A stretch of 64,000 nt of DNA from Candidatus Helarchaeota archaeon. Lineage in GTDB: Archaea > Asgardarchaeota > Lokiarchaeia > Helarchaeales > RDOG01. The translations under genes were made by a program, and so were the position numbers. Below the pieces are notes generated by a model. It was not told where the DNA came from. It ran no database searches and saw nothing but the letters and a program-made list of their open reading frames with translations. Below are positions 58,119 to 63,416 of this stretch, piece after piece (the stretch's first letter is position 1; each line of letters begins with the position of its first letter). The stretch spans positions 68,699 to 132,698 of the forward strand of contig JALGVI010000003.1 in assembly GCA_029838215.1 (NCBI GenBank). The letters run 5' to 3'.

Positions 58119-59228
58119 ATGATATTCAAGGACCGAGATTTTCTCATAACAAAAGAAGGTTTGATCTTTCGAGTATATGGTTACACGCATCCGCCAGATG
58201 CCGCTGTATGTGACGTAGAATATGCACCCGAAACAATCTATCAAACATCTGACCCTCGTGCCATTCGCTTTCTTTATAGAGGTCATTCGGATGACACCAA
58301 GCAGCATTCCCGGTATTACAAGTTTTATTTTGATGGTGGGCTAAAATTCGTCCAAAAGCGATATCCCGAATATCAGGTTAATTTTAGACCATTAAACGTT
58401 AAATTAGTCGGATTGAAAGAAACGCAAATCACGGAATTTCGATCACCTCAAGAAAAACTGCGATCGATCTTGGCAAATGATGAGAAGGATCCGTTAATAC
58501 AGACCACTCAAGACATAATCGACATCATTACTGATCATTCTACTCTAAAGCCGAACGATTTTGGATGCTTTGGTTCGATATTGCACGATTTTTACCACGT
58601 CAAATACAGCGATATTGACCTGACGTGTCATGGAAAAAAAGAACTCCGGGAATTAAGAGAAACCTTGAATGATTTTTACGTGCAGGATGAGCATCCCATT
58701 AAAAATGAGTTCGATTTTTGGACAAAAGATATTGAGGAAAGCAAGCATTGGCACTTTGTGAATTATCCCATAAAGGATTATCCTCTCTATGAGCGTAGAA
58801 AAGCCATATATGCCGTGACAAATTCTCCATTGCTGAACCGCCGCATAAAAATCGAATTTGAACCCATTAAAAAGGAATCTGAATTTAAAAACGAATATGA
58901 GAATCTCCAGAACATTGAACACGTTGGCTGGATCGAAGTCGTTGCCGAAATAACTGATGACGATGATGCGTTTTACCTTCAATCGCTCTACTCAATCAAG
59001 ATCTTAAAAATTGAAAGGGGACCACGAGTCGAAATTGATCGAGTTTGTAACTTCTTGGAAGAATATAGGGGAATCGTTCAGAGGGGAGAAACGGTCGTGA
59101 TCAAAGGTAATCTAGAAAAGGTGACTACCGTGTCTGGTATATTTTATCAGATCACGTTATCATATGGTCATCGCAATTATGAAAAACAGGTTTTGAAGTT
59201 AAAAAGCCCTACAAATCTCGCTGATTAA
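58119..59228 (+). CDS. Archaeal predicted nucleotidyltransferase (COG1665-like), paralogue 2
   Basis: FGCFGSILHD..YSDID; N-terminal GLIFRVYGYTHP; C-terminal GE.VVIKGNLEKV. Confidence 0.75.
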   Translation: MIFKDRDFLITKEGLIFRVYGYTHPPDAAVCDVEYAPETIYQTSDPRAIRFLYRGHSDDTKQHSRYYKFYFDGGLKFVQKRYPEYQVNFRPLNVKLVGLKETQITEFRSPQEKLRSILANDEKDPLIQTTQDIIDIITDHSTLKPNDFGCFGSILHDFYHVKYSDIDLTCHGKKELRELRETLNDFYVQDEHPIKNEFDFWTKDIEESKHWHFVNYPIKDYPLYERRKAIYAVTNSPLLNRRIKIEFEPIKKESEFKNEYENLQNIEHVGWIEVVAEITDDDDAFYLQSLYSIKILKIERGPRVEIDRVCNFLEEYRGIVQRGETVVIKGNLEKVTTVSGIFYQITLSYGHRNYEKQVLKLKSPTNLAD

Positions 59229-59437
59229 TGGAAAAAATAGAAAAATGATACCAACACGCTCTAATATTCACCAAACTATTGAAAACTCCCATTATTTCTG
59301 ATTCAAAACTCGAAATTAATTTCATTCATCAATAGAAATCATTCAAAATAGTTGTATTTTATTGCATTGATTATTAGACGAGTCTTTGAAATTGATGTTG
59401 TATTCATTTTATGATTGGCATTAAATCATGTTGTCAT

Positions 59438-59548
59438 AAAAAAAAAATGAGTAGCATGCATCTTGAAAAGTCGTTTGAAACATCACCTTTTTTTGTCGAA
59501 TCTCAAGGGCGTGAGGATTGTGTCGGAAGCAAAGGTGTTTACACCAAA
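59438..59548 (-). ncRNA. Candidate structured small RNA divergent from the histone gene
   Basis: Minus-strand TATATAAAA at 59579-59571, nested stems at 59484-59545, T10 tract at 59447-59438; no family recognised. Confidence 0.25.
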
Positions 59549-59673
59549 GGAGCTTACGAGAAACCAAAGCTTTTATATAGTACCAAAATAAAAAATTAAT
59601 ATACCCAAACAATTCAAACACTTAAAACAAAAAAATTAACAAAACCTAGAAAAGAAAAATTGAGGGATGAATT

Positions 59674-59895
59674 ATGGCAAAAGCCCCCAAAGTAATAACA
59701 AAAACTGCCCTTCGCAGGCTAATGAAAACTGAAGGCGATGCTTCAATCGTAAGTGCTGACGCTATTACGGCTCTAATTGATTATTTACAGGATCTCGCAG
59801 TTGATATCACTAAAAAATCACTAGCCATCTGTAAACACGCAAAGAGGAAAACCATTAGTAAAGAAGATGTAAAATTAGCCATTGCCGCATTATAA
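59674..59895 (+). CDS. Archaeal histone (HMf-like), short N-terminus
   Basis: Histone fold ITKTALRRLMK...VSADAI...KHAKRKTISKEDVKLA. Confidence 0.95.
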   Translation: MAKAPKVITKTALRRLMKTEGDASIVSADAITALIDYLQDLAVDITKKSLAICKHAKRKTISKEDVKLAIAAL

Positions 59896-59907
59896 TATCA
59901 AAACAAA

Positions 59908-59926
59908 CCTTCTTTTTTTTTCTCTT
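59908..59926 (+). terminator. Oligo-T terminator of histone gene 1
   Basis: CCTTCTTTTTTTTTCTCTT 13 nt after the stop. Confidence 0.6.
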
Positions 59927-60050
59927 CATTGCTTTTTAAAGTTCTTTTTTGCGTTTAGTCAACCAATTCTTGATTTCAACATGAAATTCTGTTCAAAATA
60001 AAAAACTACAAAGAATAAAAGAAATCTCGCCTATAGTCCGTGTTAATGAC

Positions 60051-60064
60051 AAATAAAAAAAAAA
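60051..60064 (-). terminator. Oligo-T terminator of histone gene 2
   Basis: A10 run on the plus strand (T10 on minus) 9 nt after the stop. Confidence 0.6.
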
Positions 60065-60072
60065 GGATTAGG

Positions 60073-60357
60073 TTATTTAACGGCCATCTTAATATCTGAC
60101 TTCGTGACTGTCTTGCGTTTAGAATTAAGTGTTAATTCCAACGCCTTTTTCGTTATATCAATGGCTCTATTTTGTAGATGATCCTGTAAAACGATGACTG
60201 CTTCTGAACTAACAATGTCTGCATCCGCTTCTTCTTTCATGAGGCGCCGCAGTGCAGTACGGGTAATGACTTGTGAGCCACCCTCCTTTTTAGGTGCCGC
60301 TTTTGGTGCAGCCTTCGGTTTTGGTTTTGATTTCGTTTTTTTAGCTTTCGGAGACAA
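60073..60357 (-). CDS. Archaeal histone with Lys-rich N-terminal tail
   Basis: 29-aa tail MSPKAKKTKSKPKPKAAPKAAPKKEGGSQ then fold VITRTALRRLMK...VSSEAV...NSKRKTVTKSDIKMAVK; TTG start. Confidence 0.95.
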   Translation of the reverse strand: MSPKAKKTKSKPKPKAAPKAAPKKEGGSQVITRTALRRLMKEEADADIVSSEAVIVLQDHLQNRAIDITKKALELTLNSKRKTVTKSDIKMAVK

Positions 60358-60651
60358 TATTCATCCCTCATTAAATTTGTTCTGATCAATCTCTTATCGG
60401 CATTATGAAAAGCGTCAGAACGCTAAGCTCCACTTACAAAAATTTCCCATCTTGGGAAACGTAATCGTTCCGAATAAAAGATAATCAACATTTTTTTAAG
60501 GTTTGAAGTGTGTACGAATAAGCTCTTTTTAATACTAGTATTTAAAACAATCGATCTTTTCCTCTTCAACCAATTAAAATCAGCTCGACAAAATTTCATA
60601 CCAATAATGATTTATCGTTAGATCATAATGAACCGAAAAAATCACAATGTT

Positions 60652-60879
60652 TCATCTTTTTCGGGATCTGGAATATTCAATATTTGAATGGATAGAATCA
60701 TCTTGAATCGCGTTTTTGGTAATTCGAAAGCTTGGAAAAGTGAAGATTTTCTGGATCTTGGGATTTTTTTCATCATCAAGAACTTGTAATTTTTTGAACA
60801 AAATGAAGATATTTATTAACGTTGATGAACATTCAAGCCAATTCGGGCAGAAATTACATGATGCTTTGATTAGATTTTT
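60652..60879 (-). pseudogene. Possible decayed gene fragment
   Basis: 76-codon open frame without a start codon inside a 700-bp gap broken by stops in all frames; no recognisable family. Confidence 0.2.
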
Positions 60880-61084
60880 CTAGGAAATGAAATCGATTCA
60901 TTGCATTTCCTGCTTATCTATTGATACCACATTTGAGTACATAAAATCCGTAAAGATCATTAATTTAGCCATGTTAAATGTTCTGCTTCTTCTTTTAATG
61001 ATACATCCTTAGATACGGTCTCTTTCTAATTCTCCCAGTTTTTGCATTAAAAAATAAAAAGGAAAAAAACCAAATGATTAATCG

Positions 61085-61348
61085 GTGGCGGCTTTGAAAA
61101 ACGAGATCCATGGAATTGCTTTACCTCAATTCAAATATTATGAACCCAAAAATTACCATCCAAATTGGGATGAAATTCGTGAAGAATCTCACGCACTTGC
61201 TAAAAAAATTGCCGCCAACATGATGCCATTTACTTTTCGCCTCAAAATTACAAGTAGAAAGCGTCGATTTTTCGCCATCATCAAATTACTCAAGAATCTA
61301 TTTATAAATAAGCACAGGGCGGCAAAGGGTTACGGAACAGCTTCGTAA
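61085..61348 (+). CDS. Hypothetical protein or gene fragment
   Basis: 87-codon ORF with GTG start; NYHPNWDEIREE is protein-like, but the C-terminus looks non-coding. Confidence 0.3.
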   Translation: MAALKNEIHGIALPQFKYYEPKNYHPNWDEIREESHALAKKIAANMMPFTFRLKITSRKRRFFAIIKLLKNLFINKHRAAKGYGTAS

Positions 61349-61385
61349 AACTTGGACAATCCTGCACGTTTAATTTTTTTTTAGC

Positions 61386-61825
61386 GAGCATTCCCGTGAT
61401 GACACGCGGTTCAATGAACTTTATCGCCGATCTTCTTCATCATGAGTTCGTGGTTGAGGATCGGTCGTGCGGCGGAGGAGCTCGGAGTTTGCCCGAAGAC
61501 TTTAAGAAGATGGGAACGCGCGGGCAAGATACGATGCGTCCGCACGGTGGGCGGGCACCGCAGGTTCAGCGTCTTGGAAGTGTCACGGGTTCGTGCTGGG
61601 CGGAAGCAGGTGCAGTCCATCAGGGCGGCGTTGTACTGCCGCGTGTCATCGCACCAGCAGAAGAAGCAGGGAGACCTCGACAGGCAGGTGGAAGCGGTAG
61701 TGGAGCATTGCAAGAAAAAGGGATACGACATCGTGGGCAAGCATCGCGATGTGGGGGGTGGTTTGAACGCGAAGAGAAGGGGACTGAGAAGGCTTTGCGA
61801 AAGAATCGAGAAGGGCGAAATCATC
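61386..61825 (+). mobile_element. Truncated IS607-family element remnant
   Basis: Abrupt GC jump (63% in two counted 60-mers versus about 35% flanks); encodes the tnpA N-terminus only; no tnpB; boundaries approximate. Confidence 0.85.
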
Positions 61826-61864
61826 AAATACTGCAAAAGAAATTTAATCGAAATTCAATTTTGA
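61442..61864 (+). pseudogene. tnpA: IS607 TnpA serine recombinase, 3'-truncated
   Basis: MerR-like HTH (AAEELGVCPKTLRRWERAGKI..RTVGGHRRF), catalytic YCRVSS, DLDRQ, DVGGGLNAKRRGL; breaks after KGEI where the family continues with ..VV...DRL.RFG. Confidence 0.9.
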
Positions 61865-61928
61865 GAAAAGTCTTGCAGTATTTTCATTCAAATTTTTTGA
61901 TGACAATTTAATTTGGGATGTTTATGTC

Positions 61929-63416
61929 ATGCGATGGATAAAAGATACCGATTTGGTACATTGGGCAGATTATCGTGATTGCCAAAGTTGCTTACCACTT
62001 GTCATTCGCCGATTGATTCGTGCAACCAGCACGGATATTAAAGACATTCGTTTTCCTTCAGGTGAAAGTATTTCATTACGTGGATGGGATGGAATTCTTG
62101 AATCAAATTCTGAAACTGAAAGAATTCCATTGGGAATGTCGGTTTGGGAAATTTCTGCACAAAAAGATCCTAAAAAAAAGGCAAATGAAGATTATGATAA
62201 AAGAACCGGGAACCCCTTAGGTTTTGAACCATCCAAATCAACATTTATTTTCGTAACACCCCGCAAATTTTCTTCTAAGTGTAATTGGATTGAAGAAAAA
62301 AAAGACCAAGGCCTGTGGAAGGATGTGAAGTTTTATGACGCAGTTGATTTAGAAGAATGGTTAGAACAGGCTCCCGCTGTTGGAGCTTGGTTGGCAAAAA
62401 AGTTACATCTCTATCCCGGGAAAGTTACATCAGCTGAGGAATTCTGGATGGAATGGTCTTCCGTAACTGAACCCAATATTACACCAAGATTGGTAATAGG
62501 GGGACGTGAGACACAAAAAGAAGAAGTAATTACGTGGTTAAAATCAGAACCATCAATTATGGTAACTCAGGCTTATAGTAGGGAAGAAACAATCGCTTTT
62601 CTTATTGCTTCCGTTAAAGACATATCGGATGAAGAACAGGCTCATTTTTTTTCGCGTGTTTTGATAATAGATGATATTGAATCATTCAAAGAAATATTTG
62701 AAGCTTTAGATGAAGGAAATGATGTTGATATCGATACGTTATCTCGGCTAGAGTTGTGTTATTTTTCCGTGTTGACAAGTCCTGCTTCAAGACGACCACC
62801 AAAAGCGATAAACGTAACTCTAGCGAATGATCCTAAATTCTTCAGGGATATGATTGATTATATCTACTTTTCCGAAGACAATGGTGATGAAGCGGATGAT
62901 AACGAATCGGAACGTGAATTCGTTAATGAGCGAGCATATCATACAAGAATTTTACTTGACAACTGGTCTTATTTACCTGGTACTAACTCTGATGGCGATA
63001 TTGATTTTGACAAACTTCTCACGTGGGTGAGAAAAACTCGAAACCTTTGTCAAGAATTAAATAAACTAAAACATTGTGATTATCATATCAGGTATTTATT
63101 TAGTAAAACAATTCGAATATCGGAAGAAGAATGGCCCCCCAAATCCGTGTGTGCAATAATTGACGAGATTAAAAGTATTGACTTAGAAAGGGGTTTTATA
63201 ATCGGTTTTTTGAATGGTAGAGGTCCCACGATTAAATCTCCATTTGAAGGAGGAACTAAAGAACAAGATCTTTCGGAAAAATTAAATAACCGTGCCAATG
63301 ATATTTCTGTTCGTTGGCCCAGAACATCAGCATTATTACGAAAGATAGCAAAATCCTTTGAAGATCAAGCCCGGGAAGAGGATAGTGAAGCTGAATTCCG
63401 AAGATTTGAACATTAA
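61929..63416 (+). CDS. Putative defence protein: restriction-endonuclease-like N-domain plus C-terminal helical domain, apparently internally deleted
   Basis: LPLVIRRLI..FPSGE..GWDG..SVWEIS..KKANEDYDKR..FIFVTPR..YDAVDLEEWLEQAP.V..W and C-terminal GFIIG.LNGRG..GG..E..WPRTSALL..IA..F...A..ED resemble the two ends of a family I recall as about 1200-1300 aa. Confidence 0.6.
   Translation: MRWIKDTDLVHWADYRDCQSCLPLVIRRLIRATSTDIKDIRFPSGESISLRGWDGILESNSETERIPLGMSVWEISAQKDPKKKANEDYDKRTGNPLGFEPSKSTFIFVTPRKFSSKCNWIEEKKDQGLWKDVKFYDAVDLEEWLEQAPAVGAWLAKKLHLYPGKVTSAEEFWMEWSSVTEPNITPRLVIGGRETQKEEVITWLKSEPSIMVTQAYSREETIAFLIASVKDISDEEQAHFFSRVLIIDDIESFKEIFEALDEGNDVDIDTLSRLELCYFSVLTSPASRRPPKAINVTLANDPKFFRDMIDYIYFSEDNGDEADDNESEREFVNERAYHTRILLDNWSYLPGTNSDGDIDFDKLLTWVRKTRNLCQELNKLKHCDYHIRYLFSKTIRISEEEWPPKSVCAIIDEIKSIDLERGFIIGFLNGRGPTIKSPFEGGTKEQDLSEKLNNRANDISVRWPRTSALLRKIAKSFEDQAREEDSEAEFRRFEH

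Follow-up and report, generated by a model that had tools for sequence, protein, structure and literature searches.

Two histone genes face each other in a 64,000-nucleotide stretch of a Helarchaeales genome (hereafter the window), one encoding little more than the histone fold (H1) and the other a fold preceded by a lysine-rich N-terminal tail (H2), and the question is what the tailed protein adds to the chromatin of this lineage. Tailed histones of Asgard archaea bear on the origin of eukaryotic chromatin, and the experiments so far come from the Loki and Hod lineages. Lys-rich N-terminal tails were described in Heimdall, Huber and Bathy histones, and less stable hypernucleosomes were proposed for tailed histones in the same study (Henneman et al., 2018; PMC6136690). 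Loki and Hod species carry 6–11 histone genes of tailed and untailed families, and their tails show enriched and site-specific Lys methylation with little tail acetylation (Cho et al., 2026; 10.64898/2026.07.02.735847). The remark in an earlier note on this DNA that archaeal tails are rare has been overtaken in the case of Asgard archaea (Cho et al., 2026). Tailed Asgard histones, tail methylation, the link between a tail and H49N, and capstones were all published in 2018, 2020 and 2026, so that the central ideas of that note are already in print for sister lineages.

Against this background, the most fitting description of H2 is that of a Helarchaeales representative of an established kind, the Asgard tailed nucleosomal histones; for now the locus extends that kind by one incremental data point and does not reveal a new type of system. 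H1 and H2 belong to a set of seven or more histone paralogues in this Helarchaeales archaeon, and we consider it likely that H2 is the N-terminally tailed nucleosomal variant of the lineage, which would retune histone multimers.

The Locus and Its Expression Signals

The source is a metagenome-assembled genome of the Helarchaeales (Asgard), for which the nearest database proteins are annotated as Helarchaeales or Helarchaeota; the assembly comprises 3.6 Mb and is 94% complete with 6% contamination. The two genes are convergent and 177 bp apart, and the features of the locus are as follows.

59662–59672, + strand: Shine-Dalgarno-type leader GAGGGATGAAT of H1, read from the sequence
59674–59895, + strand: H1 gene, open reading frame with ATG start, 73-residue untailed histone
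59896–60072: AT-rich spacer of 177 bp between H1 and H2, with no open reading frame of note
59910–59921, + strand: oligo-T tract of H1 (T9 at 59913–59921), 18 nt past the stop codon, an archaeal-type terminator signal
60055–60065, − strand: oligo-T tract of H2, about T11, beginning 8 nt past the stop codon and reading as an A run on the + strand
60073–60357, − strand: H2 gene, open reading frame with TTG start, 94-residue tailed histone
60359–60369, − strand: Shine-Dalgarno-type leader GAGGGATGAAT of H2, read from the sequence

The arrangement agrees with the earlier description of a convergent pair with strong oligo-T terminators, T9 and about T11 following the respective stop codons. The leader was likewise found at both genes, with 7 nt between GAGGG and the start codon in each case (ATG in H1, TTG in H2), but it is not specific to the pair and represents a generic ribosome-binding site of histone genes: of the seven histone genes in the source genome, six have (G/A)AGGGATG(A/T)A with equal spacing, and in six other genomes of the order a GAGGG variant stands ahead of nearly all histone genes. 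T7–T12 tracts are similarly present downstream of almost all histone genes in the order, hence leader and terminators are ordinary expression signals and do not mark a special relation between H1 and H2. An Rfam search over positions 59000–61400 with E-values up to 0.1 returned no family. A scan for sigma-70 promoters and hairpin terminators, a type of scan that is uninformative for an archaeon, gave one hairpin with a T-run upstream of H2.

Two Histone Folds With Shared Departures From HMfB

Both genes encode true histone paralogues, as had been proposed. H1 and H2 match PF00808 (archaeal histone/CBF-NFY) with 43 bits (E 5.7e-11) and 44.9 bits (E 1.4e-11), respectively, the curated gathering cut-off being 21.4 bits; both also match PF00125 above its curated cut-off, and a search of PDB sequences recovers the solved archaeal histones HPhA, HMfB and HMfA for each of them. 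Weaker PDB matches include eukaryotic H4, NF-YC and viral histone doublets, with the full-length H1 query aligning to H4 chains across residues 8–70 at E-values of 0.004–0.07. The helix-1 motif ITK.A.RRL has what we take to be an H4-like look; a 24-residue helix-1 query against the PDB, seeking this motif, gave no match. In an AlphaFold2 model built on an alignment, the helices of H2 lie at residues 33–44, 51–78 and 86–93, and the fold occupies residues 30–94, its C-terminal end being the equivalent of residue 65 (HMfB numbering, used hereafter for individual fold residues). Residue equivalences were taken from HMMER alignments to HMfB and HPhA and from a MAFFT alignment of 82 relatives, and are listed below.

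Residue 16 (Gly in HMfB): H1 Gly followed by an inserted residue; H2 Ala plus insertion
L1 loop relative to HMfB: one extra residue in H1; one extra residue in H2
Residue 19 (Arg in HMfB): H1 Ile; H2 Ile
Residue 46: H1 Ile; H2 Leu
Residue 48: H1 Lys; H2 Leu
Residue 49: H1 His; H2 Asn
Residue 51 (Gly in HMfB): H1 Lys; H2 Lys
Residues 52/54/59: H1 R/T/D; H2 R/T/D
Residue 62: H1 Leu; H2 Met

These alignments reproduce the residue assignments of the earlier note, namely I46/H49/D59/L62 in H1, N49 and M62 in H2, and Ile19, Lys51 and a one-residue L1 insertion in both. The proteins share their fold with HMfB and HPhA (PDB 1A7W, 5T5K, 1KU5) and retain R10, R52, K53, T54 and D59, which are fold-stabilizing and DNA-binding residues; the R52–D59 salt-bridge pair and the R-K-T motif of L2 correspond to R58, K59, T60 and D65 in H1 and to R81, K82, T83 and D88 in H2. 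In contrast to HMfB and HPhA, both carry R19 to Ile, G51 to Lys and the extra L1 residue, and H2 differs further by its tail, A16, L48, N49, M62 and the end at the residue-65 equivalent. The minor-groove Arg19 is absent from both H1 and H2, and Ile19 is shared throughout the order's ITKTALRRLMK and FAWSP families; residue 19 is variable among multi-histone archaea (Stevens et al., 2020; PMC7776873). Given Ile19 and the longer L1 in both proteins, the geometry of DNA wrapping could differ from that of HMfB.

A Translated Tail That Is Predicted to Be Disordered

The tail raises two questions, whether it is translated and whether it is more than a generic polycation; its coding region and start codon are as follows.

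60271–60357, − strand: tail-coding region, 29 Lys/Ala/Pro-rich residues, supported by the open reading frame, pLDDT and the conserved frame
60355–60357, − strand: TTG start codon of H2, the sole usable start

Residues 1–29 contain 10 Lys (at positions 4, 6, 7, 9, 11, 13, 15, 19, 23, and 24), five Ala, five Pro, one Glu and no Arg, and carry MSPK and KAAPKAAPK; the earlier count of ten Lys in a 29-residue tail is thus borne out in the translation. Residues 4–27 have a pLDDT below 50 (AlphaFold2). Upstream, TGA stops the frame two codons ahead of the TTG; an ATA one codon upstream was considered as a start and rejected, as the TTG is spaced like the ATG of H1 and that of the orthologues.

A start codon other than ATG might hint that the tail is an annotation artefact, left untranslated because the true start lies downstream, a possibility that the earlier note had also allowed for. 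However, the only downstream start in this frame is Met40, which lies inside helix 1, while the Shine-Dalgarno motif stands 7 nt before the TTG, exactly the spacing of H1. The orthologues L054 (an NCBI Helarchaeales MAG) and L055 (a Logan assembly) both start with ATG, equally far from GAGGGATGA, and in four orthologues indels have not closed the tail frame, so that a downstream start is hardly credible. On the evidence of the start codon, the Shine-Dalgarno spacing, the ATG of the orthologues, the open frame and the AlphaFold2 model, we conclude that the tail is real and translated, and it is predicted to be disordered.

Two motifs within the tail need qualification. The duplicated KAAPKAAPK is a repeat in the protein but not in the DNA, where 8 of 12 positions are identical between the two 12-nt units and no tandem repeat in the tail-coding region was called by TRF; a recent duplication of KAAPK at the DNA level is therefore unsupported. 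The N-terminal SPK, which had been likened to SPKK-type kinase targets, is present but reads S-P-K-A and departs from the S/T-P-K/R-K/R pattern of SPKK. Residue 2 is Ala in two of four orthologues (P0002 and P0004), and none of the tail Ser or Thr residues is conserved among the four; taken together with the SPKA sequence, the replacement of Ser2 in half of the orthologues makes a conserved kinase site unlikely. Proteomics detected no phosphorylation on any archaeal histone (Cho et al., 2026).

A plainer reading is that the tail reflects a habit of this lineage of adding K/A/P-rich segments to proteins associated with nucleic acids, which would provide only non-specific DNA affinity, for example by offsetting the lost Arg19, and would have no regulatory role and no role in post-translational modification. 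In the source genome, 10 of about 3,515 open reading frames of at least 120 residues have K/A/P-rich 25-residue stretches comparable to the H2 tail, hence the tail may be a generic polycation and not a regulatory platform, and it evolves fast and with indels while its composition is maintained. Against this, K4, K6, and K7 are invariant across the four close orthologues, and the tails of relatives bear enriched, site-specific methylation (Cho et al., 2026). We regard a purely generic polycation as possible, though rather less probable than a tail that takes part in the behavior of a tailed nucleosomal variant.

The enzymes encoded in the genome give weak evidence. Loki GNAT and SIR2 enzymes are active on tail peptides, and no SET homologues were found (Cho et al., 2026); the source genome likewise has no SET domain, as in cultured Asgards, and encodes three SIR2 homologues and several HDAC-family genes, a set in keeping with the picture drawn by the preprint. 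SIR2 and HDAC control families were found in 9–10 of 14 genomes, and being so widespread their presence here says little.

The Dimer–Dimer Interface

The three criteria for hypernucleosome formation include the dimer–dimer residues L46/H49/D59/L62 and a small residue, G16, in the stacking loop, and residue 48 is the position of the stacking salt bridge in HMfB (Henneman et al., 2018). H1, with I/H/D/L, agrees with the dimer–dimer set, whereas H2 has L/N/D/M, and under the rule of that study its H49N is scored +/−. The interface of the tailed paralogue is indeed altered, as had been noted, with N49 conserved in orthologues of two genera and M62 in those of one. The close orthologues P0002–P0004 are 91–94% identical to H2 in the fold, have tails of 25–30 residues, and all keep LTLNSKRKT (L48, N49) and DIKMA (M62). 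A divergent tailed form, about 52% identical, occurs in a second genus of the family (G006) and in the database representatives P0018 and P0019; it has a 32–33-residue K/A/P/E tail and N49 but L62. N49 is found in all tailed Helarchaeales orthologues (P0002–P0004, P0016, P0018, and P0019). Other families of the order have only an extension of ~10 residues (MSKKSKEEVK...) on a related paralogue, with His or Asn at residue 49. A contig scan with the tailed alignment recovered only Helarchaeota-type loci and a few distant ones, and no new tailed copies.

On a capping interpretation of these substitutions, N49, M62, L48 and A16 would jointly abolish the contact made in the four-helix bundle or in stacking, so that dimers containing H2 would cap hypernucleosomes, fix their length and present the tail, in a division of labor reminiscent of H2A/H2B. 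Residue 49 is the diagnostic position of capstones (Stevens et al., 2020), H49N was judged likely to weaken the contact in the tailed HA of Heimdall LC_3 (Henneman et al., 2018), N49 recurs throughout the tailed Helarchaeales orthologues, and position 48, the stacking salt-bridge residue of HMfB, is Leu in H2 as opposed to Lys in H1. Yet capstones are defined by an acidic or hydrophobic residue 49 (Stevens et al., 2020), a marker that Asn does not match; Asn49 can still hydrogen-bond the retained D59, and Leu to Met at residue 62 is conservative. In addition, predictions and molecular dynamics in the preprint treat the tailed HLoB.2 as nucleosome-like or hypernucleosome-forming (Cho et al., 2026), even though HLoB-type histones also lack H49 and L62. 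In a sample of 82 related histones, H49 is missing from 21 of 26 tailed but only from 9 of 56 untailed sequences, an association that rests on only two well-supported independent contrasts and so cannot be called significant. The capstones of Methanobacteriales (Msp_0383; PMC7776873) resemble H2 in having a substituted residue 49 that is conserved by descent in a multi-histone genome, but their residue 49 is acidic or hydrophobic and they are untailed and lowly expressed, whereas H2 combines Asn49 with a tail. A capping function of H2 is accordingly unlikely. As residues 48, 49, 62, and 16 differ from H1 and are conserved in the H2 clade, some retuning of the dimer–dimer or stacking contacts is likely.

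H1 and H2 Within a Multi-Histone Genome

The proposal of a specialized two-histone system does not survive inspection of the genome, which carries seven PF00808 histone genes in three or four subfamilies and is thus a multi-histone system. Besides H2, these are the following, all identified by PF00808 matches.

H1 in the window and a close, near-identical H1-type untailed paralogue elsewhere in the genome (contig C152)
"FFAWSPLR" family, three members (contigs C153, C165, and C123)
HMfB-like histone with R19, H49, D59, and L62 unchanged and with Lys replacing Gly16 (contig C134)

That H1 and H2 might still be kept adjacent as an obligate pair, in the manner of H3–H4 or H2A–H2B, is suggested by the recurrence of the arrangement in one close relative, L055, where a tailed gene 91% identical to H2 converges on an H1 orthologue with 76% identity that shares the unusual AICKHAKRK segment, across a spacer of 156 bp. 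The other side is flanked by a divergent radical-SAM gene. The survey of relatives beyond L055 is less favorable, as the tailed orthologue of G006 has no histone neighbor and the other histone genes there lie more than 200 kb away. Convergent genes, moreover, have separate promoters, so that co-regulation is not implied, and a near-identical H1-type paralogue is encoded on C152. Archaeal histones generally form both homo- and heterodimers, which also speaks against an obligate partnership. We therefore consider a dedicated H1–H2 heterodimer improbable, even more so than a capping role, and retain the reading of H2 as a tailed variant among several paralogues.

Origin of the Tail

A genome search at the level of the class recovered Lokiarchaeales histones whose tailed sequences follow the pattern MAKK...YIAKAPIRRLMK...DKRKRVTAAD.... 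The C-terminus of one of these, L058, nearly matches the HLoB.1 antibody peptide RKRVTAADVIAAE of the preprint (10.64898/2026.07.02.735847), which identifies the Lokiarchaeales tailed clade as HLoB. H2 is 40–48% identical to HLoB-type sequences, compared with 56–67% to untailed Helarchaeales histones, and in a maximum-likelihood tree (70 columns, LG+C20) the Helarchaeales tailed clade (85/92) is nested inside the Helarchaeales ITKTALRRLMK group (86/76), while HLoB-type sequences form a separate clade (98/95). The tree disfavors H2 as an orthologue of the Loki HLoB, and with H2 placed outside the HLoB clade the properties of HLoB can be carried over to it by analogy only. A tail derived from an untailed MAKAPK-type histone, as suggested earlier, suits the same topology. 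Enforcing one clade for every tailed histone costs 8.5 lnL and is not rejected (AU p 0.066), nor is a clade that joins the tailed histones to the short-extension "ADIVS" histones (AU p 0.061), so that a separate origin of the Helarchaeales and Loki HLoB tails is suggested by the tree, though not decisively.

HLoB (Ca. Lokiarchaeum ossiferum B35) and HMpB (Hodarchaeales) resemble H2 in a disordered K/A/P-rich N-terminal tail of 15–30 residues on a nucleosomal-type fold, in an aliphatic residue for Arg19, Lys51 and the lack of His49, and in the occurrence of the tailed form beside several untailed paralogues in one genome. In HLoB-type histones residue 49 is K/N/D/A/G and residue 62 is N/K/S/T/A in the MAFFT alignment; H2 differs from them by its one-residue longer L1, T54 (R54 in HLoB-type histones) and M62. 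The HA of Heimdallarchaeota LC_3 shares with H2 a Lys-rich N-terminal tail and H49N, but belongs to another Asgard class, and its tail is modelled as exiting via three Arg residues (R17–R19 in the numbering of HA), whereas the H2 tail is free of Arg.

The locus thus adds a Helarchaeales tailed variant that appears to be nearer to the untailed histones of its own order than to HLoB, and that likewise pairs a Lys/Ala/Pro tail with a residue other than His at position 49. If the origin of the tail were truly independent, this recurrence would suggest a functional link between tails and altered dimer–dimer contacts. The full scenario, in which an untailed ITKTALRRLMK-type histone gained the Helarchaeales tail separately from the Loki HLoB tail, through expansion of its MAKAPK N-terminus, and His49 was lost with tail gain in each origin (Heimdall HA, Loki HLoB, and H2), seems doubtful. 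Were it true, the repeated gain of tails with loss of His49 would represent a convergent step towards heterotypic particles of defined size, like the eukaryotic nucleosome, and the conserved convergent H1/H2 pair could be heterotypic partners.

A Tailed Variant That Would Retune Multimers

As a tailed nucleosomal variant with the normal three-helix fold, H2 would form handshake dimers, either homotypic or shared with untailed paralogues, H1 among them, and these dimers may then be incorporated into histone multimers that would wrap DNA. From such particles the disordered 29-residue tail could project as a polycation that provides additional DNA contacts and charge neutralization, and by analogy with Loki HLoB and Hod HMpB its lysines are likely to be methylated or acetylated. 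L48, N49, M62, and A16, at the dimer–dimer and stacking surfaces, most likely retune the extension of the polymer without abolishing it, and would probably weaken it. H2 thus probably co-assembles with untailed paralogues and modulates the stability of the multimers; if extension through H2 is weaker, the dosage of H2 relative to its untailed paralogues would modulate multimer length and compaction.

Start Codons in the Tailed Histone Subfamily

Non-ATG start codons recur in the tailed or extended histone subfamily, as the tailed histone H2 (TTG, 60355-60357) shares both its start codon and the spacing to the GAGGG-type ribosome-binding site with the tailed orthologue of G006, a second genus of the same family (locus L011), while a short-extension paralogue in genome G004 (L016) starts with GTG. 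The closest H2 orthologues start with ATG.

The Flank Upstream of H2

The region beyond the H2 start contains the following features:

60442-60460, minus strand (the strand of H2): 8-bp hairpin GTTTCCCA...TGGGAAAT, followed by TTTTTG, ~85 nt ahead of the start codon of H2
61118-61330, plus strand: radical-SAM gene remnant
61396-63416, plus strand: GC-richer segment encoding a 140-aa recombinase-type protein and then a 495-aa ORF
61929-63416, plus strand: the 495-aa ORF, adjoining the IS607-type recombinase

The hairpin could serve as a terminator for a unit lying further upstream, or it could form within the 5' leader of H2. Of the 419 residues of the radical-SAM protein, only 9-79 are left here; in L055, a Logan-assembly contig of a close relative, the gene sits upstream of the tailed histone in divergent orientation. 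The segment following the remnant has a GC content of 46-48%, compared to ~32%, and its 140-aa protein combines a MerR-HTH with a resolvase-N domain, as in serine recombinases of the IS607 type. The window ends where the contig ends, and the whole resembles an insertion by an IS element, which would also have broken the assembly. The 495-aa ORF had no Pfam match at E 0.001, and since TnpB is the usual occupant of the slot next to the recombinase in IS607 elements, it may be a divergent TnpB-like gene or other cargo.

Other Histones of the Assembly

Three 71-aa paralogues of a separate 'MAKKR(F/Y)FAWSPLR' histone family, which was found in every genome searched of the order, are encoded in the window's own assembly (G000) on contigs C153, C165, and C123 (L005-L007); they have Lys rather than Thr at position 54 (HMfB numbering) and retain H49, D59, and L62. 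The sole HMfB-like histone of G000, on contig C134 (L001, 1480-1707), keeps R19, H49, D59, and L62; its Gly16 stacking position is occupied by Lys, and its ribosome-binding site (GAGGAG...) is unlike that of the other six histone genes. As contamination of the assembly is 6%, it is not certain that this histone belongs to G000.

P0020 and P0021, which are among the nearest database representatives of the H2 fold, are relatives of the H2 family in which the histone fold is fused or repeated: one, of 181 aa, carries a 115-residue N-terminal domain ahead of the fold, and the other, of 374 aa, contains four histone-fold stretches.

Polycationic Stretches Across the Genome

K/A/P-rich stretches (25 residues with at least 8 Lys) occur in 10 of ~3,515 ORFs of at least 120 aa across the whole of G000, and therefore polycationic appendages are not limited to histones in this genome. 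The stretches are N-terminal, C-terminal or internal, with examples on C82 (minus strand, 28652), C122 (minus strand, 36760), and C90 (plus strand, 6836).
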